Below are positions 9,566-62,325 of a DNA stretch of 64,000 nucleotides, in pieces. The position numbers and the translations under genes were made by a program. The stretch spans positions 3,792,374 to 3,856,373 of the forward strand of contig NW_015164181.1 of the NCBI RefSeq assembly GCF_001447785.1, read 5' to 3'. Below the pieces are notes generated by a model, which had not been told where the DNA came from, did not search any database, and was given only the letters and a program-made list of their open reading frames with translations. Every line of letters begins with the position of its first letter. Position 1 is the stretch's first letter. This DNA is from Gekko japonicus. Its lineage: Eukaryota.

Positions 9566-9699
9566 GTGAGTATGAACGGAATCCCAGAGAGCCCTGGAGC
9601 TCCAAGATCAGAGCCAGACCCATCCGATCAGTCAAGAAAAGTTTGCTCAACTCAACCGATTGAATACTGACCCCGTATTTTCAAAGCTCTGATTTAATT

Positions 9700-26549: not shown

Positions 26550-27350
26550 GTCCTCTTACAGTGATGAGGCTTGTAGAGTTTAATGTGCAGTTTATTTGTA
26601 TGCTGGATGTCTATGAGTCTCCCTGCTTCCATATTGATTAACCCTTTCTCTCTGGAAGAGATTTGTTTGCGGTCGCGCAGAAAGGGCCAGGGCATAGAAA
26701 AGAAAGACCTTTTTTCTTTAACAGTTCTGCGTGAAACCCTGTATGGTCAAGAAAGCATCCCAGTCCTGGTCCAAATCCATTCTCAGAAATCATGAGTAAA
26801 AGGGAATTTTGTTAACCATTTCATTCATGTTCCAGTGGAGATGCAGGCTTAGGTTGTAACACATCCCTGATGTGGGAGAATAGAGCTACACTCCAGTTTG
26901 AAACCCTCCTCCCCCACTGACGCCTTTAACCCTGTAAAGGATTCTCTCTCATTTCCTTGCCAAGCTTCACAGCACAGTTTGACCGGGAAAGAGAAGCAAC
27001 ACAGGAAGGGGGGAGGGGTCGGTCCAGGCCATGGGAGGCATGGTGTGAACACTCTGCACTGTTGAACAAGCCTGCTAGAGGAGGGAGTGCAGCTGAGTGG
27101 AGCTGCTGAGTTCAGGAAGCAGTCTCCTAACTGGATGGTGTTCGGGCAAATGGGGTTCCCATGTTGCACAGATAAGGAAAGGAGGGGAGCCTTTGGGTAG
27201 ACAGGAGATGAGTTTGATGCAAATTAAAAGAAGAGGAATTATACAGATAGAGTCATATGATGGAGAAACAAACTTCATTCACTGCTGTTGCTCTTGTTAG
27301 GAAGGAATATAGTAGGATACCAGAGCCTTGTGCCAAAAAGCATGTAGCTT

Positions 27351-27572
27351 AGGGGAGGGGCTGTGGCTCAGTGGAAGAGCTTCCGCTTTGCAAGTGGAAG
27401 ATCCAGGTTCAAATCTCTGACATCCCCAGTTAAAAGGATTGGGCGATACGGGATGCTGAAGACCTCTGCCTGAAACTCTAGAGACTAGAGCTGCTGCCAG
27501 TCTGAGTAGACAATACTGACCTGGATGGCCCAATGGTCTCATTCAGCATAAGGCAGCTTTGTGTGTGTTTCA
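27351..27572 (+). mobile_element. tRNA-derived SINE (Squam2-like)
   Basis: GGCTCAGTGG..GGTTCAAATC head and GCTGCCAGTCTGAGTAGACAATACTGAC body. Other copies near 10915, 18686, 42868 and 55495. Confidence 0.7.
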
Positions 27573-27991
27573 TGAGTGAACTAAGATACTTTGAACTAAG
27601 GTCCTAAAATGTTTCTCTGAGTGCTTGGGTCAAAATCTCTTTGTGCTTTCATTTGTGGCATCAGGGTTGTAGTGTTGTCAGGCTGGGTGTCTCCAGTCCT
27701 GTCCTGTCTTTTGCCACAACTCTTATTTTTGTACTGCAGAAGCCCTTGTTTCAAGGGCCCTATATGAATGGCAGAGGCAAGTTGGCCACAGACAGGCCTG
27801 CAGAATGGATGCTTGATGGTAGCAGGCAGTGCCCCATCCCAGACTTTGGGAAACTAACAAGGAAAACTAGAGGTGTAGATTTGCACTCATTGGCCATGGT
27901 ATTTCAGAGTGAGTCAAACACTTGTGTCTATGATTGGGTGAGATGTTTGTCTTAACATGAACAGAGTTTTTATTTTTCCTTTATTTCCTAG

Positions 27992-28120
27992 ATCTTTCCC
28001 ACTTTGATCAAGGCTTCCAGATTGAATTGAGTAGGTCCTGTAAGCCTCCACTCACTAAATCGGTATATTCTGCTAAAGGCCTCAGCTGTTTGAAGGATCT
28101 TCAAAGCACTCTATGCCCTG
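27992..28120 (+). CDS. SLFN: Schlafen coding exon 2 (129 nt)
   Basis: TTTCCTAG|AT...CCTG|GTGGGT; encodes DLSHFDQGFQIELSRSCKPPLTKSVYSAKGLSCLKDLQSTLCP; phase 1/1; paralogous exon at 58930. Absent from the ORF track. Confidence 0.9.
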
Positions 28121-29094
28121 GTGGGTTTCCGTGTTGATTCTGTAATATCAAACACAGGGGTTGTGTCAATTGGTGAGACGGTTATATCACATCCTGCTTT
28201 TATTCTGTACAAAACAGCCTGTTTCAAGAGTGGGTAAGAGCATTAATAATGGCACCATTTTAAAATGGCATTTTACACACAGGGAGGTATGTGAGAGACA
28301 TATGGCCAAACAGCTAGCTAGCAATAAAAATCCACATTTCTGCATGGCTTTTGGTTTACTGTCCACAGGCCATCAGTAGGGTTGTCTCCTCCTGGAAAGA
28401 ACATTTCTATTCAGGATGAAATCCAGAAGGGGCCCAGGAGTCTTGGGCTGATCTGAGGCAGGATCTTAGTTATTTGGAAAAGGTATTGGGGCACTGTACA
28501 ACATTTGCCAGACTATTTTACTGGTTAGTCAGCAAACATCTCCATGATGCCCCCCAAGGCATTCTTGCATATTCTGTGCCTACTTGTCAAAATCTCACAT
28601 TAAAGGGTATGTTTTGCGAAACTATTGATATGACTGCTGGGGGTATGGAACGTGCCATGTGACTGTTGTCCTCATCCTTTGCCAATACCCTTCCCCCCCC
28701 CCCCCCCCCCCCCGCGATATTTCATTGGCTTTTGTGTATTTATAAAAACACAGTGGAAAGGGGAGGAAGACTTCAAGCATTCTGGCACCTGCAATTTTGT
28801 ATGAAAATGTCTTCCTCTTTGAGGTACTAGAATTCTGTTTACAGCAATAAACCGCCATTCTGCTGTATATTAGTATGTGTAGACTGACCTGTTATTGAAG
28901 GCTGAGACAATTGTTTTAAAGCACCTTAACCTGTGTATGGATTATGTATGTGTTCCTCCACCACTGAAAGGTTGAAAGAACAGAACAGGTCAGTTCTGAA
29001 GCCTGTCACCTTTCTTTTTGGCTCTTAGATTCCAACACATACAATTCTCCCCTCCCCAACTGCCTAAGCTCTTAACTGGAGGAATTTGTTCATC

Positions 29095-29096
<2 letters not shown>

Positions 29097-29152
<56 letters not shown>
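29097..29152. repeat. (CT)n microsatellite
   Basis: Pure CT run. Confidence 0.95.
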
Positions 29153-29155
<3 letters not shown>

Positions 29156-29399
29156 TTCTCTCCTTTCTCTCCAGTAACTCTCTTAGTTTTATGTGTCCTC
29201 TCGTGATGCTAAGTCCTCCCTGCTACAAGCACAAATGTGTGAAGTCTTTTTTACTGTTTGCTAAATTTTGCCGCCTCTTTGTGCCGTGGATGCTATTCTC
29301 TGTTGCCTTCCTCCCCAGTCCACTAAGCTTGCAGTAACTTCAATAGTGTCTTAAGGATTATTCTTATCATTTTAAAATAAAATATTCTCAAATTTCTAG

Positions 29400-30138
29400 G
29401 AGATTCAAATGGGATAATTTATAAATCAGAAGAACTCTGTGCAGAACTCTTTTCTGAGTATCTGGGACTGAAGAACATTATGAACAAGAAGATGAAGGAG
29501 CTACAATTTTCTAAGGGAGTCCTGGTTTTTTCAAGAAGCTGGGCTGTTGATGTTGGGCTGCGGCAACATCCATGTGTCGCCTGTGATATCCTCTTAGTAG
29601 CCACAGACACAGTTCCAGTGCTATACACAATTATTGTGGATAAGAATTATTCTGACTCTTCAACAATCCCTGTGTTGCAATATTCAAGGAATGTTGCCCG
29701 TATATTAAAGCAGAAACTGGTGAATGAAGGGGGGTATACTCGGAAAGTATGTGTGGTTCCACATGTCATTGAACTTGGATCCAATGGAGAGGTAAAGACA
29801 GATCTGAGTTTGCCAGTCCCATACCCTCTCACCTATGTGGTCTCCAGGGAAGATTTAGAAGAACTGACGCAAGCCCTTGCGATTGTCTTGCTAAGGTTTA
29901 GGTCTTCCTTAAGTGACCAGCTTGGCTGTGAATTTTTCAACCTTCTCACCACTAAGCAGCATGAGATCCTAACGAAGAATCTCCATAAGAGCAAGAAGCT
30001 GTTTGTCTATGGCCTTCCAGGATCAGGGAAGACTGTCGTGGCCTTACAGATCATACAGAAAATGAAAAATGTATTTCACTGCAGCTCTGACGAGATCCTT
30101 TACATTTGTGAAAACAGACCGCTGTGTGAGACTGTGAG
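29400..30138 (+). CDS. SLFN: Schlafen coding exon 3: SWAVD linker and Walker A
   Basis: TTTCTAG|G acceptor; [38 protein letters not shown]; donor AG|GTAAGT at 30139. Confidence 0.94.
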
Positions 30139-31266
30139 GTAAGTGTTTTGCAAGGCAGTCTGTAGAAACATCCATGTCCCACATCCCTTCAGTTGTCACA
30201 GGAATGGCTGAGGCCAGGAATTGGGGACAAAGAATGGCAGCTGTTGTGTGATACAAGGTGTGTACTGGTAGCAGAAATAATTGGTTTTGCAGGAAAAAAA
30301 ATAGTATATGCTGAAAGCACATCAAACCATTCCTGAAATTTAAGTTTCTGCAAGTTACTTGCAGGCAGTCTAGAGTGTTTTTAATTAGCTTTTGGCAAAT
30401 GGTGTCTGCAAATCACTTATTCAATGCTGATCAAGCTCAGAGGAAATGTTAGCTTTTAGATGGATTTGGCTCGTTGTTGCTGGAGAAAGACTAAATCCGA
30501 CACTGCAAGATAGTTCTTCTATTGGGTAGGCAGAGTGGGAATTAGATTACTGATCCACTTACGAAAACACACTGCCTAGCTTGCCCTCCTAGTCTGGGTA
30601 GCGAACAAGTTTTAATAAAGGAAAGATAGCAAGACACCCAGTAGTTTAATTAAAGAGGAGTTGACAAACCATATGAGAAATCTAGTGACTTCCAGTGAAC
30701 ATTTTGGCTAGTAAATTAGAATGCACATAACTTTCTACGTACATGCCTCCTAACTATCCAGCCAGGATACCTTGGGGAACCATTCCCCAGTATCTGGTGC
30801 TTTACCTTATGACTGTATTTTTCCTGTCTCATAATTTAATATTCCCCGATGCAGGCAGGCAGATGGGAGATGCCAAAATGGTTGCTGTAGTGTAAAGTTA
30901 GGATGCGTGGCCTAAAGAGTCTAGCAGTAGTTCTGTTTCCTATGAGATCCACTGATTACTTGTTATGTACAGAAATAACAGTGGCTGGGATCCAGACTAT
31001 CATTTTTGCAGGTGCAAGTCTTTCTGTCCACAAAGCATGATTATCTTGCCTCCCTTTCCCACAGCAGTTAGAAATGCCCCCCCCCCCCATCTGGTTCCTT
31101 GGGTCCCCTGTCCTCCCAAAACTGGATTGCAGTGGGCATTTGGGACTGCTACAGCAGGGAGAATGTAAGGAAGCCAGATTCTGTGAGTGGAAATCCTTGC
31201 ACCCCTGGAAATGCTAGTCTGATTCGGGCCAGTAAATAAACACCTAATTTTTCTTTTCTTTTCTAG

Positions 31267-32086
31267 AATGAAAAATATTTGCCAGGCTGTAACACGAGTC
31301 AGTTTTTTAAAAGGGAAATACACTCAATCAGTGAAGCACATCATAATTGATGAGGCCCAGAATTTCCAGTCCGAAGACGGTGATTGGTATGGGGAAGCTG
31401 TGAAAATTACACAAGCAGCTGCTCATAAGCCTGGCATTTTATGGATCTTCTTGGATTATTTACAAAAAACACACACATTTGATTGTGGGCTTCCTCCTCC
31501 CTATGCTCAGCAACCTCAGGAATGGTTAACTCTTGGGGTGCGGAATGCCACTGAAATTTTTGATGCCATGAAAGAACAAATGCATAACATACTGTGCAGT
31601 CCCAATGAACCTGGCATTCCTTATGAACAGTTAGAAGCTTTGGTAGAAGAAGCTCAGTGTGGTCACAGTCTAGGAGGTATTTTAGTTAAACCTAAGGTGA
31701 ATGATGAAAATGCAATAGCAGATTATATAGTAAGTAAGTGTCTTCAGTATTTCCGAGATGGTTATTCTGGAAAAAACATAGCTATTCTATGCAGTACTGC
31801 AATAGAAAGGAATAAATATCGACTCTTACTCAAGTCTAAAATGCCGAGACAGATGAGAAAATTAAAGTTGTCTGTAGACTTCACAGAAGCAGATGACGCA
31901 AAGGGGGACAGCATCGTTTTAGACAGTGTTCGCCGTTTTTCAGGCCTCGAAAGAAGTATTGTGTTTGGCATTTATCTACATTCTCAGTCAATGGATACTG
32001 TTGATAATATGTTACTCTGCATGATATCGAGGGCCAACTTGCACTGTCATTTGATGTTTGAGTATCCCAGCTGGAAGCTCCCATAA
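31267..32086 (+). CDS. SLFN: Schlafen coding exon 4: SF1 helicase-like domain
   Basis: TTCTAG|A acceptor; Walker B HIIIDEAQNF, GILWIFLDYLQ, LDSVRRFSGLE, SRA; stop TAA. Joined CDS is 2940 nt = 979 aa. Confidence 0.94.
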
Positions 32087-41420: not shown

Positions 41421-43141
41421 TAAGAGAGACAGAGTGGGCGTGGACAATACTTAGAAGCACTCTGTGGTGTTGGTGGGAGTTCAATTTCATGCAATAAAAT
41501 GGCTGTCAAGTCCAGAGCTACATGCAAGCTTTATGGGCCTTCACGAATAGTGTTCGAGGTGGCCTCTCCATCACAGCTCATCCATCTGTCTCTCATTACA
41601 CACTCTTTTTAGTCTGGTTGCAAAGCAGGGGTTTTTAATAAACAGCTTGTGTGCTATTGATAGCTTGTTGGCTGCTGCAGTGAAGCTCGCGTATCTCTTG
41701 GAAGAACCCAAAAAATGCGGCAAAAGATTCAGCTCTAAACTTTTTAGAATGGTTTTAGTTCATAAGATTTTAATCTGTGCCTTTTTGGTGCTGTTCAGCT
41801 GATAGCTTCATTTCCGGTGTTCTTCCTAGTGCATGTTCTGTTTATAGAACAGAACAAAACTTGGTAACAATAACATGCCGGTGGGGGGGTGGGGAGTAAC
41901 TTAGGATATTTGTTCAGTACTCAGAAGTAGTTCTCATTAAAGAAAAGGTTGTAGAACCTTGGCAAAGGGAGCATAAATGCTACTTCAATGTTGCAGGGGC
42001 TTCTGGGCCCATCGCAAGAGGGGCTTGTATGGTTGCCAACTTCCTGGAAAGAGAAAATACCCATCTCTTCCATAAAGATGTAATTGGATGTTATTTACCA
42101 GCATGTCATGAAAAGCTTCAGCTGCCCATTTCTGAACATTAAAGCCTCTATTGCAGGCACAGGACATTTTCCTCCATGTTTGTTGGCTACTTTAGCTAGC
42201 CTTCGGGTGAGATCTGGGAATCTCCTGGAATTACAGCTCATCTCCAGACTACAGAGGTCAATTTTCCTGGAGAAGATGGATGCTTTGGAGGATGGACTTT
42301 ATGGCATTGTACCTCACTGAGTTCCTGTTCTCCCCAGGCTCCATCCTCAAATCTCCAGGACTTTCCCAACCTGGATCTGGCAACCCTACCCCCCCATCCC
42401 CTGTCAGTGGCTGGGGGGACCTGGCAACCCTATCTTAGGGGGCTGCATGATTTTGCTCTCCGCTTCCTCCACTGCCTCCAGACAGTGGAAGGAAGATAGG
42501 TCCAGCATGGTGTAGTGGTTAAAGTGTCAGACTAAGCCGTGGGTGACCCAGGCTCTAATCGCCACTCTTCCATGGAAGCTTACTGGATAACCCTAAGCCA
42601 ATCTCACACTCTCAGCCTCACCTACCTCACAGGGTTATTGAGAGAGTAAAATGGAGGATAAGAGAATTATATAAGCCACATTAGATCCCCATTGGGGAGA
42701 AAGGCAAGGGTATAAATCAAATAAATTTCTTTTTGGGGTGCCCCCTTTGCCAGGCTGTGGCAGATGTCCAACCATAGCAGTTGATTTGGACTGAAAGCAG
42801 GTTAAAAATATAATGAAGAATGATTTGAACAGAACCACGAGGTTTTTTACTATAGGCTTCTGGAAGGAAGAGCTGTGGCTCAGTGGCAGAGCATCTGCTT
42901 GGCCTGCAGAAGGTCCCAGGTTCAATCCCCAGCATCTCCAGCTGAAAGAAACACGTAGTAGGTGATGGGAAAGACCTCTGCTTGAGACCCTGGAGAGTGA
43001 CTGCCAGTCTGAGTAGACAATACTGACTTTGATGGACCAAGGGTCTGAATCAGTTTAAGGCAGCTTCAAATCTCCTGTGTTTTTTTAATAAAAACAATTA
43101 CCGAGGTATTCTGCACAATGTTAGGCCAGCAACATAGCATC

Positions 43142-44576
43142 TCACTGTGTGCTACGTATTGAGAGAGATGTGGCAGATCTTGTTTGAAACAGAGAGACAA
43201 TTTTTTTTCTGGGCACCTTCAGTTCTGTACAACCAAATCCAAATGCTCCATAATTGGGGTCAGGTAAACTTGCTCCACACTGGGTCCAGCTCAGGAGGCC
43301 TGGCTCCCAGTAATGGATAGCATTGGAACAGCAGTCATTGCAGTTGCCCCCAAAGACATAAATCCTCTTCTGCCAGCGAGCGACTCCTGGATAAGAGATT
43401 GAGATGGGCAGTGGTGGGATACAGATGTCTTGGTTCATTGTGCCATCTTCTAGCAGGCAGGCACAGCGTCCAGTGAATCGGCGACCCCCGAGGGCGATGT
43501 CTTCAGTCAGCCCACCGACGACAAAGATACAGTTGTCCAGTGCAATGGCGCTTGCCTCACAGAATTCAAATGTCATGAGGACCTGGTTCCAGGCTTCTGA
43601 TACAAGGTCATAAACCAGAAATCCCCCGAATGGGTTTGGCATGTCAGGGTCTCCTATGCTTGTCTCTCCACCGATAAGGTACAGTTTGTGCCTGAATGTT
43701 GCAGAGGCAAAGTAGGCCAAGGGGAAAGGCAGGCTGGAGATAGGGACCCATTCTTCTTGCTCCAAGTCAAAACATTCAGCAGATGTGAGGGGTCCCGTAT
43801 TATCCCAGCCAGCAGCAGCATATAGCTTATTGTGGCAGAGTTGGAATGCATGCCACGCTCGAGCTGTAGACATGGAGGGGAGCTGGGACCAGCGGCCCCA
43901 CAGTGCGTCATATACAAACAGATTGTCCGAACAGGAATTGTCTAAGCACCGTCCACCAGCTACGTAGAGTTTGTGGCCCTTGGAGGTGCAACCCGGGAAG
44001 GTCAGTGATTTCAGATCGGGCAGCTGTTCCCATTGTTCAGTGGAAAGGTCAAAGAAGTGCACGTGAGAATCTAGCTCCTCATTCTCTGGACTCATCTCGC
44101 TCCACTTTGGCAGCCCGATACACACCACTCCTTGGTGGTACATGCCCTGCCTGAGCCCTCCACTGGCCTTCAGTCTTTCTTCTGCACTGAGTTCCTCCCA
44201 CTGCAGCCGCACGGGCTGGCAAAATCCTTCCATGTCACCCTGGACCTCAGCAAGCTCTTCCGGTGTCATCAAAGGAAGGCGGACGTGAGCCATCAGTTCT
44301 GCCAGTTTCAGGAGGCGCTCGCCAGGATTACACTTGACCCAGCGGCGCACGGCCCTGTACACAATCAGTTCAGACTCCACCACCAGGTTGTCTGAGGAGA
44401 TGAGGCTGACCAGGGTGCTGAAGTCAAGAAGCAGAAAGGCCGGACACTCTGAAAGGTGTTCAAAATGGAAGGCGACGTAGGACAAGGTTGGGCGGAGGAG
44501 AGGCCGGTGGTTATGGGAATACGCCAGGGTGTAAAACTCCAGGCAATTCTCCATGGAAATGCTCCCCTTGAGGAAT
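43142..44576 (-). CDS. Kelch-like (BTB-BACK-Kelch) protein, last coding exon: BACK domain and Kelch propeller
   Basis: Acceptor CTCCTTGTAG|A. BACK: MENCLE...LISSDNLVVESELIVYRAVRRWV...VRLPLM. Kelch repeats KLYVAGG / KLYAAAG / KLYLIGG / IFVVGG / IYVFGG with YD...W. ATTAAA ~55 nt past the stop. Confidence 0.93.
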
Positions 44577-44977
44577 CTACAAGGAGCAACAAAGGAGTCT
44601 CATTTGGTTTGTTTATATATTTAAAACATTTCTATCCTGCCCTGTCTCTTTGAGCTCACGGTGAAGAACACTGTATCACTAAGCGGCAAGGTGACGGTTA
44701 AACGTGAAACATATTGCACAACATAACCAATCGGAAAATATTTACACGTAACACACATTCAAGAATTAAAGTACACAGAATTAGTAAATGCAGAGCTGGA
44801 TCTGCTGGAAAAATTCACCCTCCACCAAATGCTTTCTGGAAGAGGACCGCCTTGCATGCTTTCTGGCAGGCCATTCCAGGGACTGGTAGCACCTATTTAC
44901 TTCCCTTTACCTCCTGTCATTCTCCTTCTGTGCCTTGAACAGCTCCGATTTATGGGCAGAACCATGTGTATTCCATG

Positions 44978-45319
44978 CAGAGGTCGATTCGGGGGGAATC
45001 GCGGGGGATCGCAGTTCCCCCGGGTGAGGTGCGGGGGGGCGGGGCACACAACGAAGCCCTGCCCCCTGCTTCTGGCCGCCCCGCTTCCGGCCCTCATTCA
45101 GCCAGGAGGAGGCAGGAGAAGAGGGAGGGTAAGTTGCTTCCTCCCCGCCTCTCCCCACCCCTGCCTGCCTGGGGCCAGGGAGGGCCTTGGCGGGGCTTCC
45201 TCACACTCCCGCCGGCCTTGCAGGTCCACCGCCGGGCCCCTGATGTCAGGGGGTGTGGCATATGCTAATGAGTTATGCTAATGAGTTCCCCTAACTCTTT
45301 TTCTACGAAACGACCCCTG
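44978..45319 (-). mobile_element. Young non-autonomous hAT element
   Basis: TIRs CAGAGGTCGATT / AAACGACCCCTG; 8-bp TSD ATTCCATG; near-identical to 57232-57571. Confidence 0.85.
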
Positions 45320-45706
45320 ATTCCATGTATGCCAGACACAAATATTCTACATTCAAGTTTCTGAATTCTGCACCAAGACAACCAATACTCTGCAATTTAT
45401 TGAAATTATGCATAAATTCCTCTTTATTTTTGCAATACTTTGCCACGTCTGTGAGCAAAGATTAGGGGTTAAAGAATTTCCCCCATTCTTTTCCTTTTAT
45501 TGTTCCAAAAATTTGTTTGATGCTTAAAAAATGAATTGTGAAAATAGAGCACTAACAGTGTACTGGGGCTGTCAGCTAGTTATTTGTATTCTTCCACACT
45601 GATGTTATTAATACATGTACTCTCCTAAAACACTGCAATATATCAGCACGACCTATGTATGACTACATCAAGATTCATATTTGTATGACGTTTTACTGAT
45701 ATGTAA

Positions 45707-46060
45707 GGAGCTGTGGTGGCTGAAGTGGTTAAGACACTGAACTGCAGGCTGTGGAAGGTCGGTAGTTCAGCAGTTTGAGACCCGAGTTGCCTCATGACGG
45801 AGTGAGCTCCCGTCTCTAGTTCCAGCTCCTGCCAACCTAGCAGTTCGAAAGCAAGAAATTGCAAGTAGATAAATAGGTACCACTTCAGTGGGAAGGTAAC
45901 AGCGTTCCGTGCGCCTTGGTGTTTAGTCATGCCGGCCACATGACCACGGAAACGTCTCCGGACAGCGCTGCCTCTTCGGCTTTGAAATGGAGATGAGCAC
46001 CGCAACCCTAGAGTCGGATTCGACTGGCTTTCGAGCAAGGGAACCTTTACCTTTACTTTT
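45707..46060 (+). mobile_element. Sauria SINE (Squam1)
   Basis: Same family as 6717; TSD TTTTACTGATATGTA. Confidence 0.88.
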
Positions 46061-46291
46061 ACTGATATGTACATGTGCTGTTGTTGAGCATTGATGGTCG
46101 AGCATCACACAAAAAAGATGCAGTCAAGGTCTGATCACATCAAGACAGAGGAATGGAGAATTCTCACCATGTGGATTCAGCATTAGAAATACAGAACTTT
46201 GAAATCCTGGAGAAATTTGGATGAGGAGCTTCCTTACTGTGCATTTTTCAGAGATGTATCTTTTAGTGCACCAAACCCTGGTCTCTGTTAC

Positions 46292-46519
46292 CTGCTGATA
46301 ATTTGCAGTGCAGGCATGACCTGAAGCCTGCTGGCTGCTGTGAACAGCTCTTCCGCCTGTCCTGCAGTGAGAACCAGTTCTCCTGTGTAGATGTAATCCA
46401 GGAGGGTCCGGAGGGAAGAGTGAGAGAGCTCCTTCAGCACGATTTCCTGTTCCCGAGATTCTTTGAAGGAGCTGGCAAACATGCGCTGGAAGTAGGAGCT
46501 GACTGAAGCCAAGACTGGC
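46292..46519 (-). CDS. Kelch-like protein, coding exon 3 (BTB domain)
   Basis: TCTCTTTCAG|G...AG|GTAACA; PVLASVSSYFQRMFASSFKESREQEIVL...LLDYIYTGEL...AASRLQV; phase 2/2. Confidence 0.92.
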
Positions 46520-46645
46520 CTGAAAGAGAAGACAGGAGCAGAGTTACGCACAGCCCAGCATCTCTGCACATTTCCCAGGCTGTATGTTCACGTGGAAAAA
46601 CCATGCATGGTTCTGTCACAAGATGTGTATAAATTACACAACTTT

Positions 46646-47024
46646 GGCCCGGTTCACACGGAGGATTTGCCGCGGGAGAGCAACAATTGCATGGCGGATT
46701 ATCCGGGCGTGATCACACCTCAAAATCTGGGAAGTGGAGCGCACCTGTGGCAAACCCATGGCGTACCGCCGAAAATGTGCAATTAAAAACTACCTGCTCA
46801 AAGGTACTAGCAACCGGTTTGCCACGGGCTGCCTCCGGAGTCCCTCGGTGTGATCGCGCCGGCCGCGGCTTTTCCCTCCGGCCCCTCGTTGATGCGCAGG
46901 CACGGAGGGAAGGAATCGTGGCGTGCCGCCAACCCATGGGATTGTGTTATGGCGTCTCTAATTGCGGCGGCGCAAAAAGCCCTGCCTCCCCCCCGTGCGT
47001 TATCCGGCCCGTGTGACTGGGGCC
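46646..47024 (+). mobile_element. PIF/Harbinger-like MITE
   Basis: GGCCCGGTTCACACG...CGTGTGACTGGGGCC with TTT on both sides. Confidence 0.75.
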
Positions 47025-47862
47025 TTTGCCTGGTTTCTCTTAGTTTATGCTGTTTTTGCCAAGCATGAAGAGTGGGAATAGGAGACAGACAGGCATTGAA
47101 TCCCACCCACCCCCATATCTTGCTAAGCAACTCTTCTGTGTCCCTGATTTCAGAAGGAACTTCCAACGCATGCTGTTTACACACATCTATGGAGAGCTAC
47201 GGGCTAGTTAATTGCTCTGCATTAAAGGAAAGCTGAGTTGCTCAGGATGTTGAGTTCAGCAGCAAAACCCCAGCTTCTTTGGCTTTTGTGCAACTCACAG
47301 CATCTATATGTCTGGGTGTCTGCTCAAAATTCTTCCAAGCTTGCCTCTGTCTTCCCAGAAGCCCTGTGCAGTTACATATCCCACTGATTTTCTCCATCCC
47401 ACCTACTTTCTGAAATATCCACTACATCTTAAGTTCTTATTTAACACCAACATGCCAGCTCTCCCATTGTAGCTCAGAAGCTTCTAGCATTTGCATATAA
47501 ACACATATTTGCTTTCTCCTTCAAACACCCTCATCATGCACTTTCCCTTCCACGTTCCTTTTGTCTCCCTAACTGGCTGTCATTTCCTGACGATCTCACT
47601 GTTCTAGCTCATTCCCATCTAGAATATTGGAACCAGTAAACCCAAATCTACACAATCGCACAAGGTGCTGACACGTACCACAACCCCCTACCTGCCAGCC
47701 TATCAGAATAGCTACAACCTCTACCCTGTCATGGCCACAACCTCTACCCCACACAGTCAAATGCATGCCACTTACTCATCTGGCTATCTTTCTAAGGATT
47801 CTATAGGACTGTGAGCCACCATGAAGACTTCTTCACAAACTAATATACAAATGCTTCAGGTA

Positions 47863-48302
47863 GGCCCCGTTCACATGAGGCGATTTGGCCCGGGAACGGG
47901 ACAGTTTGGGGCCAGATCAAACCGGCGCGATCACACCACAACATCTGGGAAGCGTCTTGCTTCCGTGGCCGAACTGTCCCTTTCCCGGGAAAATGCGCCT
48001 CAAACTGAACCACCTACCTCGGTGGTTCAAATGGATGAGGCGCCTCTTCCCGGGCGTCTGATCGCCGGCGCGTCTTTGCGCCGGCACAACCCCGGCCCGG
48101 ATCCGAACTGCGCATGCTCCGACATGCGCAGTTCGGCCGGCCCCCGGTTAGGGCCGGCTTTTCTCCCCGGCGTTTGATCGCGCCGGGGAGAAAAGGCGGC
48201 TCGGCCGGGGATCCGTGGGATCCCACCGAGCCGTGTCAACGTTGGCGCGGCTTTTAAAAGCCGCGCCTCAAGAGGCTTTTCCCCTGCCGTGTGGCAGGGG
48301 CC
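47863..48302 (+). mobile_element. CpG-rich PIF/Harbinger-like MITE
   Basis: GGCCCCGTTCACATG...CGTGTGGCAGGGGCC followed by TAA. Confidence 0.75.
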
Positions 48303-48421
48303 TAAAATAACACCCCAAGGCTGCTACACACCCTGTTAAGTCCTCATGCTCTATTAATGGCCTTGCTCTTTCTGTTAAAGCCTCTCTGGGAGCCCTTCCT
48401 ACAGGTAGCAGAGCAGCTTAC

Positions 48422-48500
48422 CTGTGACAAGGGAACATTCTTCCTTCGGCCACTAGAGTGACATCACAGAGTTGTTGAGACTGATACAGTTGATTGATCC
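48422..48500 (-). CDS. Kelch-like protein, coding exon 2 (start of BTB)
   Basis: CACTGCAG|GG...CACAG|GTAAGC; GINQLYQSQQLCDVTLVAEGRMFPCHR; phase 1/2. Confidence 0.9.
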
Positions 48501-49533
48501 CTGCAGTGGGTGGGAAAATGTACAGTTGAGGCAAAACCGAGCTCATAAGAAAAACAGGATCACGAAACTGCGGGGGAAATCGGGCGAAGCTGCGGGTCAA
48601 AATGCAGCCCCGCAGCTTCGGGTGTGAAATTGACCAATAGTATCGGGGCGAACGGCGGCGCAACACCGAGGCAGCTCTAGTGCGAAATCAGCCCTAGTCA
48701 GCATCCTGTTTCCAACAGGGGCCGGTTAGATTCTTCCAGGAAGCTCACAAATGGGAGTTTTCTTCTGTTGTTTCAGCATTCAGTGCTCTGGGCTAGACTG
48801 CTGCTGAATATGGAGGTTCTATTCCCAAGTATCATGGCAAATAAGAGCACCAGAGCCCTGTTGCATCATACCAAAGGCCCATCTAGCCCAGCATCAACAA
48901 CCCGCCAGATTCCTCTGGGAAGTCCAAAAGCAGGACAAGAAGGCAAAAACCTCTCTTCACCATTGCCCCTCCCCTAGTAAGAGGTGTCTGCTGCCTCTGG
49001 ACATGAAGGATGCATTTAGTCATCACTACTAACAGCTGTTGAAAGACCTTTTCTCAGGAAAGGGAGAAAAGGTTATCTACTTTCTCTGCATCCTTAATGT
49101 CCCCCCCCCCAAATTCTCTGCCATTTCTAAGCTAAAACATAGGTGGAGAGAATGCTGGTGGAAGAGGGTATTAAGGAAGATGAACGGCTTGTGGCCTCAG
49201 CACATGGAACAGCACAAGGACTTAAGACCTATCTGGATCAGACCAGCCATGTTGGGGGAATACTCTTCTAAGCAATAGTAAAGAGAGTCTCCCTGCATCC
49301 ATAGGCAGCACTGACTGTGAAGACACTTCTCCACCAGATGACTAGGTACTGACAAGCAGTTTCTGTTTTTACATCACTGCCGAGAAACTGTAAAAGTGGG
49401 AGCAGAGAGAATGACAGCGTGAATCCATCTAATGTACCTTTCCCATTTTAGACTTTGGCAGGGATACTTTATAAAGTATTTGTGTTCCAAAGGGGCCTCA
49501 TTGGAACCTCCCCCCAAGGTGATCCAACCTGAC

Positions 49534-49636
49534 CCTGTATAATGCGGTGCTTCAGAGATAAGGTGTCTGTTTGGATACTGTTGGTCTCCATGTCTGGGGC
49601 CTTTGAAAAGCTGAGATTCTTAGATCGTTGGGACAT
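49534..49636 (-). CDS. Kelch-like protein, coding exon 1
   Basis: Strong acceptor TTCTTCTCATTTTCAG|ATG; MSQRSKNLSFSKAPDMETNSIQTDTLSLKHRIIQ-G|GTCAGG. Phase 1 joins to GINQL, giving the typical pre-BTB helix. Total 1845 nt = 614 aa. Absent from the ORF track. Confidence 0.75.
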
Positions 49637-49730
49637 CTGAAAATGAGAAGAACAAACACCTAAGTCTTTCTGTTGGGATTATCTATATACCTATGTACAC
49701 TCTACTGACACAGTGTGGTTGGTTAAACCT

Positions 49731-52134: not shown

Positions 52135-53080
52135 NNNNNNNNNNNNNNNNNNNNNNNNNNNNNNNNNNNNNNNNNNNNNNNNNNNNNNNNNNNNNNNNNN
52201 NNNNNNNNNNNNNNNNNNNNNNNNNNNNNNNNNNNNNNNNNNNNNNNNNNNNNNNNNNNNNNNNNNNNNNNNNNNNNNNNNNNNNNNNNNNNNNNNNNNN
52301 NNNNNNNNNNNNNNNNNNNNNNNNNNNNNNNNNNNNNNNNNNNNNNNNNNNNNNNNNNNNNNNNNNNNNNNNNNNNNNNNNNNNNNNNNNNNNNNNNNNN
52401 NNNNNNNNNNNNNNNNNNNNNNNNNNNNNNNNNNNNNNNNNNNNNNNNNNNNNNNNNNNNNNNNNNNNNNNNNNNNNNNNNNNNNNNNNNNNNNNNNNNN
52501 NNNNNNNNNNNNNNNNNNNNNNNNNNNNNNNNNNNNNNNNNNNNNNNNNNNNNNNNNNNNNNNNNNNNNNNNNNNNNNNNNNNNNNNNNNNNNNNNNNNN
52601 NNNNNNNNNNNNNNNNNNNNNNNNNNNNNNNNNNNNNNNNNNNNNNNNNNNNNNNNNNNNNNNNNNNNNNNNNNNNNNNNNNNNNNNNNNNNNNNNNNNN
52701 NNNNNNNNNNNNNNNNNNNNNNNNNNNNNNNNNNNNNNNNNNNNNNNNNNNNNNNNNNNNNNNNNNNNNNNNNNNNNNNNNNNNNNNNNNNNNNNNNNNN
52801 NNNNNNNNNNNNNNNNNNNNNNNNNNNNNNNNNNNNNNNNNNNNNNNNNNNNNNNNNNNNNNNNNNNNNNNNNNNNNNNNNNNNNNNNNNNNNNNNNNNN
52901 NNNNNNNNNNNNNNNNNNNNNNNNNNNNNNNNNNNNNNNNNNNNNNNNNNNNNNNNNNNNNNNNNNNNNNNNNNNNNNNNNNNNNNNNNNNNNNNNNNNN
53001 NNNNNNNNNNNNNNNNNNNNNNNNNNNNNNNNNNNNNNNNNNNNNNNNNNNNNNNNNNNNNNNNNNNNNNNNNNNNNNNT
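52135..53080. other. Assembly gap (946 N)
   Basis: Run of n. Confidence 1.
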
Positions 53081-54796: not shown

Positions 54797-57231
54797 GAGG
54801 CAAGACCACATGAACACATGAGGTTGCCTTATCTGACAATTACTCTGTCAGTGTCAGTACTGAGTATTTGGACAGGCAGCAGTCCAAGCCATTCACATCA
54901 CCTAACACTTGATCCTTCTTTTTAAAGCGCAGGTGCCAGGGATCGAAGCAGGGACTCACTGCATGAGAAACATGGCATGTTAACACAGTTGACTGTCCTT
55001 TAAAAAAGATTGTATCAAACTATGTCTGGGAAAGATCACAACAAAGCAGGGGAAAACTTTGGAGACAAAGTTTTGTTGAGACTCCAACCCCCCCCCCCCC
55101 AACAACAAAAAACCTGCTCCAATTTGGATGCCAAACTAGAGCAAAATCTCCATGTGGAAGCAACTCAAGTCTAGTTCAGTGTATGATTTCTCATCAAGGA
55201 TGTGATTCGGGATTAAGAGGACATCCTCAGATCTTGATAATACTTCTGACTCTGAATTCCTTTGACAACTAGGCCAGCATTTGTCTGAATATTTCTGGGC
55301 AGGTGTAAAATATCTTAGTACTGACTTGTGGCAGTATTGTGTCAAAAGACTCCATTATCTTCAAAAACATCCAGTGACTCACTTGTCCAATGTGGAATGT
55401 CTGCTCTAGGCATTGGAGGCTTAGATAGAATGGGGTTGTGGCCTTCTCATGCTGGTTCCCAATATATTTCTCAAATCAGTTGCTTTTAGAACTGGAAGGG
55501 AAGGGCTATGGTTCAGTGAAAGAGCCTCTCATTTGCATGCAGAGGGTCCCAGTTTCAATCTCTAGCATCTCCAGTTAAAAAGGACCAGTTGATGTGAAAG
55601 ACCTGAGCCTGAGACCCTGGAGAGCTGCTGCCAGTCTGAGAAGACACTACTGACCTTGATGGACCAAGGGTCTGATTCAGTAGAAGGCAGCTTCATGGGT
55701 GTCTTCAGCTGGCGTGCAAGTGATCGCAAAGAGCTGTGAAGTGAAAGTGCTCTATGTGAACTCTACAGCATTGACTTTAATGTTCCTCCCCACCCCAGCC
55801 CCGGTAGAATATGACTGCTGCAGAAGAGAAGCTGAGCCGTGACTTCAATTCAGACTATCCTGAAGTTGTCGTAAGAGTGGGGGAAATAACATTTGGTGAA
55901 GAACAAAGAAGCATGAAGGACAGGGTTAAAGAAATTGAAGCAATGTTTCGGGAGCAGAATAAGAAGGATAAGTCCAAAAAAGCCAACAAAGATACTGAAA
56001 AACTAATAAGCCAATTAAAAAGCAAGCTAGAGGAGAAACTAAAAAAGCAAGTGACTGATCTCAACCAAGCAGCCTGTGCCTTACTCAACTCAGGGGGAGG
56101 AGTGATAAGAGCCGAAATTGAGAATAAGGACTATTCCTATAAGCGACACAGGATCGGACTGGACATAGAAGATTCCTTTCGGGAGTGTATTCAGAACAAA
56201 GACTTCTCTGAATATTTTGACTTTCAACAGGAAGAGTTTTCCATGTTGATTTTTGTGAAATCATGGAGCAGCGAAAATTTGGCATACCCACGTGTTTGCA
56301 GCCTGAACATGGGATTGAATGAGCGCTCCAGTTCGTCGACTGTGAAAATGAAACCCGCAAATGCTGTGCATTTTCTCAAAAGGAAGAAAGATCATGCCAA
56401 GAGAGGTTCTGGGTGGCAGGCAGGACCCACACCTGCAAATATTCAAAAACGTTTGTGGGGATCTGGTGTGCAAATACATTAATGATGCTGCCACTCAGTT
56501 TTTCGAACGAGAACGACTGGACTTTGGAGAGATCTTGGATTTCACTGAGTCGACCATGGTTGAGTTTAAGGATTTCCCAAGAGATAAGGACAACTATGAG
56601 TTTGCTAGAAGCATCCTACCACGCTATGCCTCCGCTTTTGCAAACACAAAAGGGGGATACTTGATTTTTGGTGTGGACAATCACCGTAGAGTTGTTGGAT
56701 GTAAAAGAAATATATGTCCGTCCCATTTTGTAGAGGTAGTTGGTGAAACCATTGGCACACTGCCCGTCTTCCACTTCTGCGCTTCTGAGGAAAAAGTGGT
56801 GTTTTTATGTAAAGTCTTGCAAGTTTATGATAGCAGTGAAAATGGAGAGGAAAAGGAACGTGGTTATGTCTTTGTAGTGAGAATTAAGCCATCTTGCTGC
56901 ATTGTTTTCGAGAGAACACCAGATTCATGGATCATAGAGGCTGGCGAGGTGAAGAGGTTGACGTGCACTGACTGGACTCTACTGATGACAGAGGAAGACC
57001 CAGGTCCTGTTAGAAATGTGACCTTTTTAGAGTTGCATTTGGAATTTATGAGCATGATCAGTGGTGGTGATTGGGGATGAGACTCCAAATCTTGTGTGGG
57101 GTAGCTCTCAAAGGAGTTGTGTTTACGAGCTATCAAGAAGGGCCCAGAGGGATACCACAGTCCTTAAACTGTGAGGCAGGGGAATATGGGGGTGATTTAT
57201 AGTTATTACTTGCACTTAATTCATTCAAAAC

Positions 57232-57571
57232 CAGGGGTCGTTTCATAGAAAAAGAGCTAGCGGAACTCATTAGCATAACTCATTAGCATATGCCACACCC
57301 CCTGACATCAGGGGCCCGGCGGTGGACCTGCAAGGCCGGCGGGAGTGTGAGGAAGCCCCGCCAAGGCCCTCCCTGGCCCCAGGCAGGCAGGGGTGGGGAG
57401 AGGCGGGGAGGAAGCAACTTACCCTCCCTCTTCTCCTGCCTCTTCCTGGCTGAATGAGGGCCGGAAGCGGGGCGGCCGGAAGCGGGGGCGGGGCTTCGTC
57501 GTGTGCCCCGCCCCCTGCCCCTCACCTGGGAAAATTGCGATCCCCCGCGATCCCCCCCGAATTGACCTCTG
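57232..57571 (+). mobile_element. Young non-autonomous hAT element
   Basis: TIRs and 8-bp TSD TTCAAAAC; inverted near-copy of 44978-45319. Confidence 0.85.
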
Positions 57572-57952
57572 TTCAAAACACATATATTACTATATATATT
57601 ATAACGCTTCCAAACAGCCTGCAAGGTGGCTCGGTGCTATTATCTTATTGCAGGAGGAATTGCACTGAGAAAAGTCACTTGCCTAAAGCACTTATGTGAT
57701 GGCTAAATGGAGCCTCCCTGTTCAGAGGCAGAGTGTCGCAGCATGACAGTTCCAAGGGGGGCTACACGAAGGGAGGGCTGTTGCCTTAATGTCCTGCAAG
57801 CTACCCAGTCATGCAGAAGAGGAGGGAGTATCGGGGGAGGAAAGAAGGCAGGAGAGAGAAAGTGACTGAGAGGTAGAGATATCCCTGCTGATCTTGGAGT
57901 CCAACTGAGAGTACAGCAGGGATGAAGGAGGTCCAGTTAGCTGCGCAGCAAG

Positions 57953-58390
57953 CAGGGCTATTTTGGGGCAGGAACGCACAGGAATGGAGTTCCGGCTGGC
58001 TTCAGAGTTGGCCACACCCATTATAGCCAAAACCTCTGCATGTGTGGCTACAGAGGGAAGGCCTGAAGAGTGACCCCCTAGGCGACTCTGAGATGGGTGG
58101 GCCAAGGGGGCCCTGGAAGGATCAAGGAGGCATTTAAATTCCTCCCCGTTCCTTCCCCAGCCTGTGCAAGGGCTGGCTTGCCCTGACTCCCTGCAGCCGC
58201 GGGGCGCCCGGGCAAGCCAAGGGAAGGCAGTTTAAACTGCCTCCCCTTCCCTCCAAGGGCTGGCTTGCCCAGGCAAGCCAAGGGAAGGCATGGGATTTGT
58301 GGCCTAATATGCTAATGAGCTGTGCTGTCAGGGGTGTGGCCTAATATGCTAATGAGTTCCTGCTGGGCTTTTTCTACAAAAAAAGCCCTG
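57953..58390 (-). mobile_element. Related hAT MITE with ATGCTAATGAG subterminal repeats
   Basis: CAGGGCTATTTT...AAAAAGCCCTG; TSD GCAGCAAG/CCAGCAAG. Shorter relative at 63012-63195. Confidence 0.7.
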
Positions 58391-59456
58391 CCAGCAAGTA
58401 AATCTCAAACAGGGAAAGCAGGACAGTGTCTCCTGCATCAGACAGAGGCTCAAACTGTTTGCAAGGTATGAGTGGTCTTGAAAGAGGCAAAAGAACATTT
58501 TGGGGAAGGAGTTGTATAAAGCAAGTAGGCGGAGCTCAACGGGGGGGTATTTTTTCCTGGGCTTGGAAACAAAGGGAGGTAGATGTAAGAGCCCTCCATG
58601 CAGGTTGTGCCACAGATTGTGCCAGGTGGCTAGTACTAGATTGGTCCTAGAACGGGAGGAGGCTGAGAGCAAATTCAGATTGTAGGTAAAGAAATGGGGC
58701 TTGAAAGTGGCTGGTCCCAAACAGAGGTTTCTGGGAGAGGCAGTGGGCATCCTAGTGCCAGTTTGGTTAAGTTCAGCCACAGTAGTAAATGAGGGGATAT
58801 GTAAATGATGAAGGTCATGGCATTGGTGGCAAAAAGTCCACGGGTGAAATGACTGGAGGTGACTAAATGCAGTCTCATCACTCTTATCTTACTTGAGGGT
58901 TTTGCATTTTACTCTTATTTACTCTGTAGATGTGTCACATTTTGCTGAAGGATTCCAGATCGAATTAAGCAGGTCCTGTGAGCCCCCACTCAGCAAATCG
59001 GTGTATTCTAACAAAGGCCTCACCTGCGTGAAGACTCTTCAAAGCACTTTATTCCCAGGTAGGCTCCTACTTTGGTCGTGGAATGAGGATCACTGTGGAT
59101 GTGCAATTGTTATCATAAATATTAATGTAATATTATATTGTAGGGTCATAGAATTAGGAAGGGTCTTGGAAACCACCTAGTCCAACCTTCTGCACTAGGG
59201 GGAGCATCCCCACCACCTCCAGCTGCTCATTTCTGCCCTGTGCAGGAACAGGAGGAAATTGGGGGAGGGAGGAAGTACTGCAACATCGCTTCCGGCGGCA
59301 CAACCAGAAATGATGTCACATGTCGCCACAACACTCTAGCAACCCCCCAAATCTCTATGGTTTTACTAGAGTGTTGCTGCAATGTGTGACATCACCCCTA
59401 GTTATGCAATTGGAAGTGACATTGCAACATCACTTCTAGTCACATGTCACCACAAT

Positions 59457-59795
59457 AGGGTTGCCAGTCCCCAGGTGCTGGCGGGAAATCCCTTGGTTCG
59501 GGGGGAGGGTTCCCTCTGCTGTGTACCAGCTGGCAGGCAGAGGAAACTCCTCTCCTAAACAGGGACGTTGCACAGACACACTCTGGTATTTGGGCAACCT
59601 ATGGTTTTGAGGGAGAAAAACCATAGAGTTTTGCCCAAATACCAGAGCATCCCCTGTGCGACATCCCCAAAGCAGTGATGTCACTTCGGGAGGTGATGTC
59701 ATTGCACTGGGGACATCACGTGACATCCCCACCCACCCATGAACCCCCCCCCCCCAAATCCCCCTGCTGGAGGAATGAGGAGACCTGGCAACCCT
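59457..59795. mobile_element. TAGGGTTGCCA-TIR MITE (very abundant family)
   Basis: TAGGGTTGCCAG...CTGGCAACCCTA with CACCACAA/TACCACAA flanks. Many relatives (e.g. ~1460, 5136, 21549, 42150, 50931). Confidence 0.7.
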
Positions 59796-60044
59796 ATACC
59801 ACAATTGCCTCTGTTATGCAATTGAAAATGATGTTGCAGCATCGCACAACACCACACGGCATCTAATCCTGTCTCTAAAAGTTCCCAGGGGTGGCCATCC
59901 TACTGTACATGGTCCTGCAAACTCAAAGGTATCCCAACAGGTGTCTGTCTAATTTCTGCTTGAAGACTTTCAGTAAGGGAAAGACAATCCACCTGTATTT
60001 GGTCCCATTGTCAAACTGTTCAAAGTTTCTCCTAATCTTCAACC

Positions 60045-60506
60045 AGTTGTACGGCTGTGGTTAGGAAAGCACTCCAGACGGTTATCATCACAGCCTAGAA
60101 GATCATTCGCTGCCCTGTCCCATTCCTGGAGGAATTGTATAGTTCTCGATGTTTGAAAAAAGCAAAGAACATTCTGTAGGATTTGTCAGATCCTGAACAT
60201 TCCCTGTTTGAACTGCTGCCTTCGGGCAGAAGATATAGGACAATTAAAACAAGGACAAACAGATTAAAAAATAGTTTTTATTCGAGAGCTATTACTGCCT
60301 TAAATGCTGTATGAAATTGGAATTTGGGTGACATTAGTGGTTTTAAGTTGCTATGTGAACCTTAAGGGAGTTATGAGATAGTTGTGAATGATTGTGTGAG
60401 TGTATATGAATACTGTTGTAGATCACCGAAATGATTGCATCTTAATTTCGTTGTACTATGTACAATGACAATTAAGTATACTATTATTATTATTATTATT
60501 ATTATT
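60045..60506 (+). mobile_element. Rex1/Babar LINE 3' end
   Basis: RKALQTVI...HSLFELLPSGRRYRTIKTRTNRLKNSFY with in-frame stops; (ATT)n tail. Confidence 0.8.
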
Positions 60507-62325
60507 TCTACCCTCTTGTAAGCAAGTTAGTAATGAGGGGGTACTCTTAAGCATAGCCATCCAGACCTACTATTACAGATGAACAACCTTTTAGACCAGG
60601 GATCCCCAACGAGGTGCCCTTGAGCACCATGGCATTGGCTGACACTATTCCTGGTGCCCACCACTGTTTTCAGAAAATGGGAGGGGACAGGAGGGGCTTT
60701 TGCCCAGTAGGGCTTCTGATTGACCACTGGATACCTGATTAACTGTGCATATCAAAAGGCATCCTTTTAAAGAGAGCTTCTGGCTGAATTGTGGAACAGT
60801 AACTATGTTGTTATGCCTAACCTCATTCCCTGAGATTCTGTGGTTGGCTCTGTTTCCTGTGGCAGCCATTTTGTGTCAGCCATCTTGTTTCAGCCAACTT
60901 GTGTCAGCATTCCCAAGGCACGCACAGGCTCAAAAAGGTTGAGGACCCCTAGTTTATACTAACCATCTCTGGTGTTTAAGACTCAGGGAGATATAAAGTG
61001 TCACATCTGCCTCATGGTCTCACCGAAATGGCTTTGGCGGCATCAGTGCCCTGCTGGCAGTGCCGTACCAGCAACACGGTGCCTCTGGCAGCTGCTACTC
61101 TGAATTAGCCTATCTGATGACAGTCCTCCCCTACACCGGAGTCAGAGAGCAACAGCTTTCCTCATTCACAGCTTCCAGAGGTGGAGCCTCCTAATGGTCA
61201 CTGTTACTGGCAGGGGTGTGCGTCTATCCCCGGGTGTGGGTGGGGCCGATGGGTGGATCCACTCACCCTTCTCACAAAGCCTGCTTGCTTTGCTATTTTG
61301 AAACAAACTGTACTCAACTTTCTAGTACACCCAGATGGAATAGTCTGTAAACCAGAGGAACTTTGTGAAGAGGTTTTCTTGGAATATCCCAGCCTGAAAG
61401 ACATCATGATGAAGAAAATGGAGGAAGTATCACCTTCCCTGGGGATCCTGATCTTTTCAAGAAGCTGGGCTGTTGATGTTGGGCTGCAGAAGCATCCGTA
61501 TGTTTCCTATGATATCCTCTTAGTCGCCGCAGATACCTTCCCAACTCTATACACGGTTACTGTGGATAAGGATTATTCTGTTTCTTCAACAGTCCCTGCG
61601 TTGGAATATTCAAGGAATGTTGCCTGTACATTAAAGCAGAAACTGGTGAATGAAGGGGGATACACTCAGAAAGTGTGTGTGTTTCCACATGTCATTGAGC
61701 TTAGATCCAATGGAGAGATAAAGACAGATTTGAGTTGGCCGGTCACATACCCTCTTGGCTACCTGGTCTCCAGGGATGGTTTAGAAGGACTGCTGCAAGC
61801 CCTTTGTGATTGCCTTGCTAAGGTTTAGGTCTTTCTTAAGTGACCAGATTGGCTGTGAATTTTTTAACCTTCTCACCTTTAAACAATATGAGATCCTAAC
61901 TAAGAATCTCCATAAGAGCAAGAAACTGTTCATCTACGGCCTTCCAGGATCAGGGAAAACTGTCGTGGCCTTGCAGATCATACAGAAGATAATGAACATT
62001 TTCCAGTGCAGCTCTGGTGAGATCCTTTACATTTGTGAAAACAGACCTCTGTGTAAGACCGTGAGATAAGCATTTTTGCCATGTGTTGCCTGAAAGCATC
62101 TGTATCTCTCTTCTGGTGTCAGTTGGTCCCCATATGGACAAAAAAGGATGAGTTATAGGGTGTGCGTGCAAAAAAAGAGAGACTGTCCTGATGGTAGAGC
62201 TTACCTGTCATTGAAGAAAATATAGGTCAAGGGAGGGGTAAAACTGATCCCTTGTATCAAAAAGAATATACTTAAGCTGGATCCCTTTCTCAGGATTCTA
62301 CCATTGTACACCCTAAAAATTCTGG

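Follow-up and report, generated by a model that had tools for sequence, protein, structure and literature searches.

A Kelch-like gene in the Schlafen cluster of Gekko japonicus is placed in a bony-vertebrate subfamily and is probably a bystander of the Schlafens

Introduction

Why does a gene of the BTB-BACK-Kelch (KLHL) type stand between two Schlafen genes in a gecko? The question is raised by a 64,000-nucleotide stretch of Gekko japonicus DNA (assembly GCF_001447785.1, contig NW_015164181.1, positions 3,792,374 to 3,856,373 of the forward strand), hereafter the window, to which all coordinates below refer. Its initial annotation presented the gene as a Cullin-3 (CUL3) adaptor, lineage-restricted or lost from mammals, that might be co-regulated with the Schlafens or control their turnover. 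We describe here the gene, its family and its neighbourhood. The gene is placed in a subfamily that is uncharacterized but already carries a zebrafish database name, si:dkey-260j18.2, and BTB-BACK-Kelch adaptors are themselves a known kind of protein. Our answer to the opening question is that the gene is probably a bystander: a CUL3 substrate adaptor with a conserved substrate of its own, for which the Schlafen neighbourhood is positional.

Structure of the KLHL gene

The gene and its parts are the following:
49636 (ATG) to 43142 (stop), minus strand: KLHL gene, four exons, 614 amino acids (aa)
49534..49636, minus strand: coding exon 1, N-terminal arm, with the ATG at 49636
48422..48500, minus strand: coding exon 2, start of the BTB domain, taken from the splice model and alignable with orthologues
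46292..46519, minus strand: coding exon 3, BTB core and the F79-x-E81 Cullin-3-binding loop
43142..44576, minus strand: coding exon 4, 3-box/BACK, linker, six-blade Kelch propeller, C-terminal helix and stop
43084..43089, minus strand: candidate poly(A) signal ATTAAA, about 50 nt past the KLHL stop

The complete, canonically spliced gene of four coding exons and 614 aa that was first annotated is thus exact in its coordinates: the coding sequence spans 1845 nt with a single, terminal stop, and all three introns are GT-AG. An alternative exon-1 donor at 49529 was rejected, as it breaks the frame and brings in 21 stops. Because an AG acceptor and a pyrimidine tract lie immediately 5' of the ATG, a non-coding exon probably exists further upstream. 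Against Pfam, the protein matches BTB (PF00651, 1e-16, on exon 3), BACK (PF07707, 1.3e-22, covering profile positions 1-101 of 103) and Kelch_1 (8e-33), and a Heteronotia protein is 88% identical to it.

The propeller had been called divergent, which holds in part. The change of GG to AG is real (AAGW at residues 391-394) and the last blades are indeed odd, the usual Kelch motif spacing being absent from blades 1, 5 and 6; however, GG is retained in 9 of the 15 sequences of the orthologue clade and deviates in the other six, and the unusual last blades are common to fish members of the family. Both features read as traits of the family or of a sub-clade, not as decay.

Membership of the si:dkey-260j18.2 orthogroup

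A first protein search with the window KLHL gave 89 matches of at least 148 bits among the best 120 of 249. Twelve of these were unnamed and were set aside; the 77 named ones all come from reptiles or amphibians, with no bird or mammal among them. Their NCBI names include KLHL1-7, 12, 17, 20, 24, 28, 35, 38 and 40, KBTBD8, KBTBD12, IPP and KEAP1B, and such a spread of more than 15 different KLHL/KBTBD names appears to be best-hit naming in the lack of an orthologue.

A family profile built from 45 of the 89 sequences was then run with HMMER over 1.84 billion representatives, ignoring long multi-repeat proteins (whose scores are inflated by repeat count) and leaving out unnamed background representatives. 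Family proteins of 600-690 aa scored 644-916 bits, against at most 413 for ordinary BTB-Kelch proteins of 550-800 aa, in a set whose clustering at 50% can hide members. Among solved full-length proteins, KEAP1 reached 299 bits, KLHL22 265, KBTBD2 238 and KBTBD4 183. A second search, with five divergent representatives, returned 99 sequences, 52 of them at or above 495 bits. The 47 that are named belong to lungfish, sturgeon, bichir, gar, many teleosts, caecilians, frogs and reptiles, again with no bird or mammal, and the teleost members are labelled Si:dkey-260j18.2 in four UniRef entries. Named mammal and bird KLHLs stayed at or below 312 bits in these 99 sequences, compared with at least 495 for full-length family members; over both scales, KEAP1, KLHL22, KBTBD2, KBTBD4, KLHL4, KLHL5 and KLHL33 fall between 177 and 322 bits.

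The phylogeny that the initial annotation had proposed as a check gives a distinct clade: 13 sequences from fish to reptiles group together with support of 100/100 against 12 named outgroups, and a wider tree of 47 family sequences holds the clade at 99 in the Shimodaira–Hasegawa-like approximate likelihood-ratio test (SH-aLRT). Identity follows the same line, as the window protein shares 36-39% of its residues with fish members versus 24-29% with named outgroups. KLHL33 was considered as an identity for the gene and rejected: the Pfam model BTB_KLHL33 (PF21536) does match exon 3, but it also matches KLHL4/5/17/18, while named KLHL33 proteins score 177-197 bits and fall, like KLHL4 and KLHL5, outside the family clade.

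From scores and tree, we thus place the window gene in a bony-vertebrate subfamily, the si:dkey-260j18.2 orthogroup. Several early claims can be judged on this basis. The lack of a match to a named human KLHL or KBTBD stands for all those that could be tested, by score gap and by tree. Restriction to one lineage, in the narrow sense, does not, given that the family extends to lungfish and ray-finned fish and has a zebrafish name. Loss from mammals is probable, and birds have probably lost the family as well.

Expansion and evolutionary rate in reptiles

From the 89 sequences of the first search, 72 named ones remained for a tree after the 12 unnamed and five fragments were excluded. Squamates account for at least six of its clades, and several others are made up of turtles and crocodilians. 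The clade of the window gene (15 sequences, SH-aLRT 100) unites geckos, a lacertid, an amphisbaenian, a snake, anguimorphs and iguanians, and in this tree no turtle or crocodilian falls inside it; the window gene is accordingly placed as a pan-squamate paralog. The copies are scattered. Elgaria has five paralogs on five contigs, and 11 of 18 paralog records from eight species lie on a contig other than that of the Schlafens, including all eight turtle and skink records.

The window-gene clade also changes faster than the fish gene. Gecko and other squamate proteins are 64% identical, versus 82% for gar and teleosts and 72% for bichir and teleosts, and the fish splits are older than the squamate ones.

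Three further observations concern individual copies. In the turtle Mauremys mutica, two paralogs (P0029 and P0413) form a tandem pair: they share an 858,930-nt scaffold, and their locus tags differ by two. In two Alligator mississippiensis models (P0335 and P0430), a family BTB-BACK region is fused with a C-type lectin domain (PF00059); adjoining genes have probably been merged in the annotation. Finally, a 323-aa isoform of Pantherophis guttatus (P0089), which belongs to the window-gene clade and is 89% identical to a Crotalus protein, has BTB and BACK without Kelch.

Fold and Cullin-3 adaptor features

The definition of the KLHL family in an excerpt of PMC3658946 comprises BTB, BACK and five to six Kelch repeats, and the window gene has BTB, BACK and a closed six-blade propeller. 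The model of exon 4 has a predicted local distance difference test (pLDDT) score of 88 and superposes on the Kelch domain of KLHL12 with Z 37.0 and a root-mean-square deviation (rmsd) of 1.9 over 282 aligned of 289 residues, and on that of KEAP1 with Z 36.6 and rmsd 1.9, Foldseek being concordant. The full-length Euleptes orthologue is modelled confidently (pLDDT 86), BTB domain included.

Regarding CUL3, an excerpt of PMC3597819 reports that Phe130 and Glu132 of KLHL11, in the alpha3-beta4 loop, contact CUL3 and that the 3-box binds its N-terminal arm. The F79-x-E81 loop of the window protein, compared via the Euleptes orthologue, aligns with the alpha3-beta4 region of KEAP1. Among the 99 sequences of the second search, 17 of which do not include that region, the glutamate is kept in 82 of 82 and the first position is F, L, M or W in 75 of 82. 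The sequence marks of a CUL3 adaptor, hydrophobic-x-Glu in the BTB alpha3-beta4 loop followed by 3-box helices, are thus present.

The propeller offers a further clue. Of 47 residues that are constant in the window-gene clade but differ in four or more of five other clades, 28 map to top-face loops; among family-wide invariants the figure is 22 of 67 (Fisher p=0.007, or p=0.056 when the comparison is with all other positions), two blade-end strands having been positioned by analogy. Since clade-specific invariants concentrate on the face that would hold the substrate, they suggest that each paralog has its own substrate and that the one of the window paralog is stable across squamates.

The surrounding locus

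In the window, the order is PEX12 (+), SLFN-A (+), KLHL (-), a 945-nt gap and SLFN-B (+), with these features:
9009..11978, plus strand: final two coding exons of PEX12, a conserved neighbour of Schlafen clusters in vertebrates
23382..23392, plus strand: element resembling an interferon-stimulated response element (ISRE), about 200 nt 5' of a strong donor at 23580 and 1.9 kb upstream of the SLFN-A ATG
25298..32086, plus strand: SLFN-A, intact long Schlafen of 979 aa (exons 25298-26549, 27992-28120, 29400-30138 and 31267-32086)
50504 (minus), 53333 (minus) and 53941 (plus): strong splice-donor matches between the KLHL and SLFN-B ATGs
52135..53079, no strand: assembly gap of 945 nt between the KLHL and SLFN-B start codons, which could hide promoter sequence
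55811..62066, plus strand: SLFN-B, probable pseudogene, ATG at 55811, last exon not found in the window

Vertebrate Schlafens are placed between UNC45B and PEX12 by Mordier et al. (10.1101/2024.01.12.575368 / PMC12492265, in the portions consulted), and because the same PEX12 flank is found here, the window is the orthologous cluster. The KLHL gene does lie antisense between two Schlafens, its neighbours on either side being on the plus strand, but it is intergenic and not embedded as had been stated: it overlaps no Schlafen coding exon, nor any intron between coding exons, and stands tail-to-tail with SLFN-A at 11 kb and head-to-head with the SLFN-B ATG at 6.2 kb.

Both tandem Schlafens announced by the initial annotation are present, but only SLFN-A is intact. 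It has three GT-AG introns and a stop at 32086, and its acidic nuclease motif aligns with that of SLFN14, an 11-residue insert directly following the motif. SLFN-B has a frameshift near 56477 (a net loss of 8 nt, judged by comparison with its Gekko kuhli counterpart), a single inserted nucleotide at 61803, and an exon-3 donor at 62066 that reads AT instead of GT. With three different lesions, a pseudogene is likelier than an assembly error, and SLFN-B is probably a recent one. It remains about 90% identical to a Gekko kuhli model (the first half of a fused 1823-aa model), and as the annotations of its Gekko kuhli and Euleptes orthologues show open frames, the duplication that gave SLFN-A and SLFN-B predates the lesions.

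The Schlafen N-terminus also bears a Lys/Glu-rich insert of about 35 residues (25388-25550 on the plus strand in SLFN-A, and in SLFN-B too), seen in 9 of 13 gecko sequences and in 0 of 30 from skink, turtles, birds and axolotl, and missing from the SLFN14 alignment. The best 120 of 246 Schlafen matches come from geckos, skink, turtles, birds, mammals and axolotl, with none from lacertid, snake, anguimorph or iguanian, and Schlafen loss or strong divergence in those squamates is possible.

As for regulation, the ISRE-like match at 23382 is the only strict one-spacer one, at a level equalled by chance in 47 of 100 shuffles; in the interval 23382-23585, SLFN-A probably has a promoter that responds to interferon and its first, non-coding exon. 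No copy of this promoter was found upstream of KLHL or SLFN-B. The donors at 50504, 53333 and 53941 mark candidate untranslated exons of KLHL and SLFN-B, which could overlap head-to-head. A tblastn search of the window detected no additional KLHL or Schlafen remnant, and no other coding gene was detected between the known ones, as 0 of 145 open frames had a Pfam match (145 of the 224 frames of at least 62 aa, excluding all 58 in 1-8900 and 21 in 12000-25200). A 345-nt inverted repeat, 95% identical, occurs at 44978-45322 (KLHL intron 3) and 57229-57571 (SLFN-B intron 1) and is probably a young transposon. A CpG island lies upstream of PEX12 (4001-4750). In mammals, PEX12 adjoins AP2B1.

Partner or bystander?

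We consider that the gene is probably a CUL3 substrate adaptor indifferent to its neighbours. By analogy with the structural biology of KLHL proteins, it would dimerize via its BTB domain and bind CUL3 through the alpha3-beta4 loop (F79-x-E81) and the 3-box; the substrate would be held on the top face of the propeller, and the two propellers of the dimer would present it for ubiquitylation. Tree and contig data are consistent with a history in which fish kept a conserved gene and reptiles duplicated it repeatedly, the copies being dispersed. One squamate copy would have landed in the PEX12-Schlafen region and then fixed its own substrate face. Its substrate would most likely be a squamate-conserved protein other than a Schlafen.

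Several points weigh against this account. The orthologue and the Schlafens share a contig in 4 of 4 geckos with data for both, so that the KLHL-Schlafen linkage is old in geckos. Gecko identities of 88/80/73% for KLHL and 84/75/74% for SLFN-A denote similar rates of divergence; a housekeeping adaptor would be expected to change more slowly than KLHL does, and the rate of KLHL agrees with an immune role. The outgroups do not include KLHL40/41 or KBTBD8/12/13, and the sister family is therefore not fixed by the tree. Same-contig calls rest on a longest-contig size match, with some clusters multi-species and some scaffolds probably unplaced. The word-indexed searches are leaky, 3 of 5 query sequences not being recovered and the fish members having been missed by the first search. 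Lastly, the representative P0246, placed among the reptile clades in the tree, keeps the loss from birds and mammals at probable, short of proof.

An infection-related CUL3 adaptor, with a host or viral substrate other than a Schlafen, could share enhancers or an interferon-responsive neighbourhood with the Schlafens. The birth and dispersal of family copies in reptiles and the faster change than in the fish orthologue (64% against 82% and 72%) speak for such an immune gene, as does the alligator lectin fusion, which suggests another immune-type neighbour. However, no ISRE-like or gamma-activated site (GAS) match occurs in 49637-55811 outside the 945-nt gap. Likewise, si:dkey-260j18.2 is missing from a zebrafish differential-expression table for virus infection (PMC11139271 file 7) that does contain isg15 and other si:dkey genes, an absence of little weight, as the gene may not be expressed there. 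An immune role of this kind thus seems unlikely, and these two results also go against the co-regulation with Schlafen that was first proposed.

It is less likely again that the window gene is a fast-evolved orthologue of a named human KLHL or KBTBD that the searches missed. Several observations leave room for it: the tree took in only part of the 42 human KLHL and 9 KBTBD genes (as counted in an excerpt of PMC3658946), a bird or mammal member could sit under a reptile representative in clusters drawn at 50%, and neighbours in the ESM Atlas, which are generic BTB-Kelch clusters only, include those of KBTBD12, KBTBD8, KLHL15, KLHL25 and KLHL40/41 at 0.97-0.98. For KLHL40/41 and KBTBD8/12/13, which are outside the tree, only the HMMER score gap and the missing bird and mammal names argue against orthology. 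Nevertheless, KEAP1, KLHL22, KBTBD2 and KBTBD4 score far under the 644-916 bits of the family, mammalian KLHL33 falls outside the clade, family members bear more than 15 KLHL/KBTBD names, and UniRef gives the fish gene a ZFIN clone-based name.

The idea that drew attention to the locus is that of a safety-catch: the KLHL paralog would bind SLFN-A or another gecko Schlafen and drive its CUL3-dependent turnover, limiting an interferon-induced RNase. Physical linkage is seen in the window, and contig sizes place the orthologue together with Schlafens in Heteronotia, Paroedura, Sphaerodactylus and Eublepharis; the propeller has a paralog-specific top face; KLHL diverges among geckos much as SLFN-A does; the gecko-only Lys/Glu-rich insert (9 of 13 against 0 of 30 sequences) would supply lysines; and SLFN11 is reportedly degraded via a virus-recruited CRL4 ligase (PMC8832970).

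The remaining evidence points the other way. Schlafens persist in birds and mammals, where no family member was found. With 11 of 18 paralog records off the Schlafen contig, linkage is no family trait, and in three species the gecko chromosome concerned also bears a second, distant paralog. Lacertid, amphisbaenian, snake, anguimorph and iguanian genomes retain the orthologue but contribute nothing to the best 120 of 246 Schlafen matches, which counts slightly against the idea. The head-to-head Schlafen, SLFN-B, is dead whereas KLHL is intact, and the KLHL top face is invariant across squamates whereas up to half of the residues differ between gecko Schlafen paralogs. If it were true, the safety-catch would reveal one way in which an animal keeps a toxic antiviral RNase in check, and KLHL would be the first host ligase adaptor whose gene is paired with that of its Schlafen target, outcomes that the evidence makes unlikely. 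We therefore hold out very little prospect for a squamate-born paralog whose new propeller face recognizes a Schlafen, perhaps at the Lys/Glu-rich insert, as a CUL3 off-switch, and the turnover role is the least probable of the proposals weighed here.

Significance

The positional neighbour that we favour is of interest for its family. A subfamily of CUL3 adaptors is mislabelled in databases under more than 15 human KLHL/KBTBD names, and expression studies in reptiles and fish can be misled when its genes are read as KLHL6, KLHL12, KLHL24 or KEAP1. Its pattern, with conservation in fish, multiplication and fast change in reptiles and apparent loss from both birds and mammals, suggests a process that ectothermic vertebrates have retained; pigment-cell types, thermal physiology and immunity may be named as candidates, beyond what our analysis supports. 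The zebrafish orthologue makes the idea directly testable.

In the literature searched, no text mention of si:dkey-260j18.2 was found, and 'dkey-260j18' is absent from the supplements of PMC10179623, PMC6609395 and PMC11007736. No description of a reptile KLHL expansion or of a KLHL in the Schlafen cluster was found in this literature either, part of which was covered by title and start of abstract. A survey of klhl genes in Carassius, in the portion consulted, treats klhl43 as ray-finned-specific and does not name si:dkey-260j18.2.

Comparison with known systems

The vertebrate Schlafen cluster of Mordier et al., in the portions consulted, has the PEX12 flank and the same-strand tandem long Schlafens of the window. 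A KLHL gene inside it, as found here, is not described in the preprint text or the journal supplement: 'kelch' and 'squamat' are absent from the former, and anole, Podarcis and KLHL from the latter.

With KLHL33, the window gene shares the PF21536 match of exon 3, but KLHL33 itself scores lower and lies outside the clade. The KLHL adaptors of CUL3 (KEAP1, KLHL11, KLHL12, KLHL3, KLHL22) resemble it in the order BTB, BACK and six Kelch blades and in the CUL3 loop. Its propeller is like those of KLHL12 and KEAP1 to 1.9 Å rmsd, yet identity over the structural alignments is only 16-22%.

The closest relatives are the si:dkey-260j18.2 members of fish, which share with the window gene the R-x-GM linker and the signature of blades 5 and 6. 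The relation is not one-to-one, since squamates have six or more paralogs, of which the window gene is one; compared with the fish gene, it changes faster and carries top-face residues of its own.

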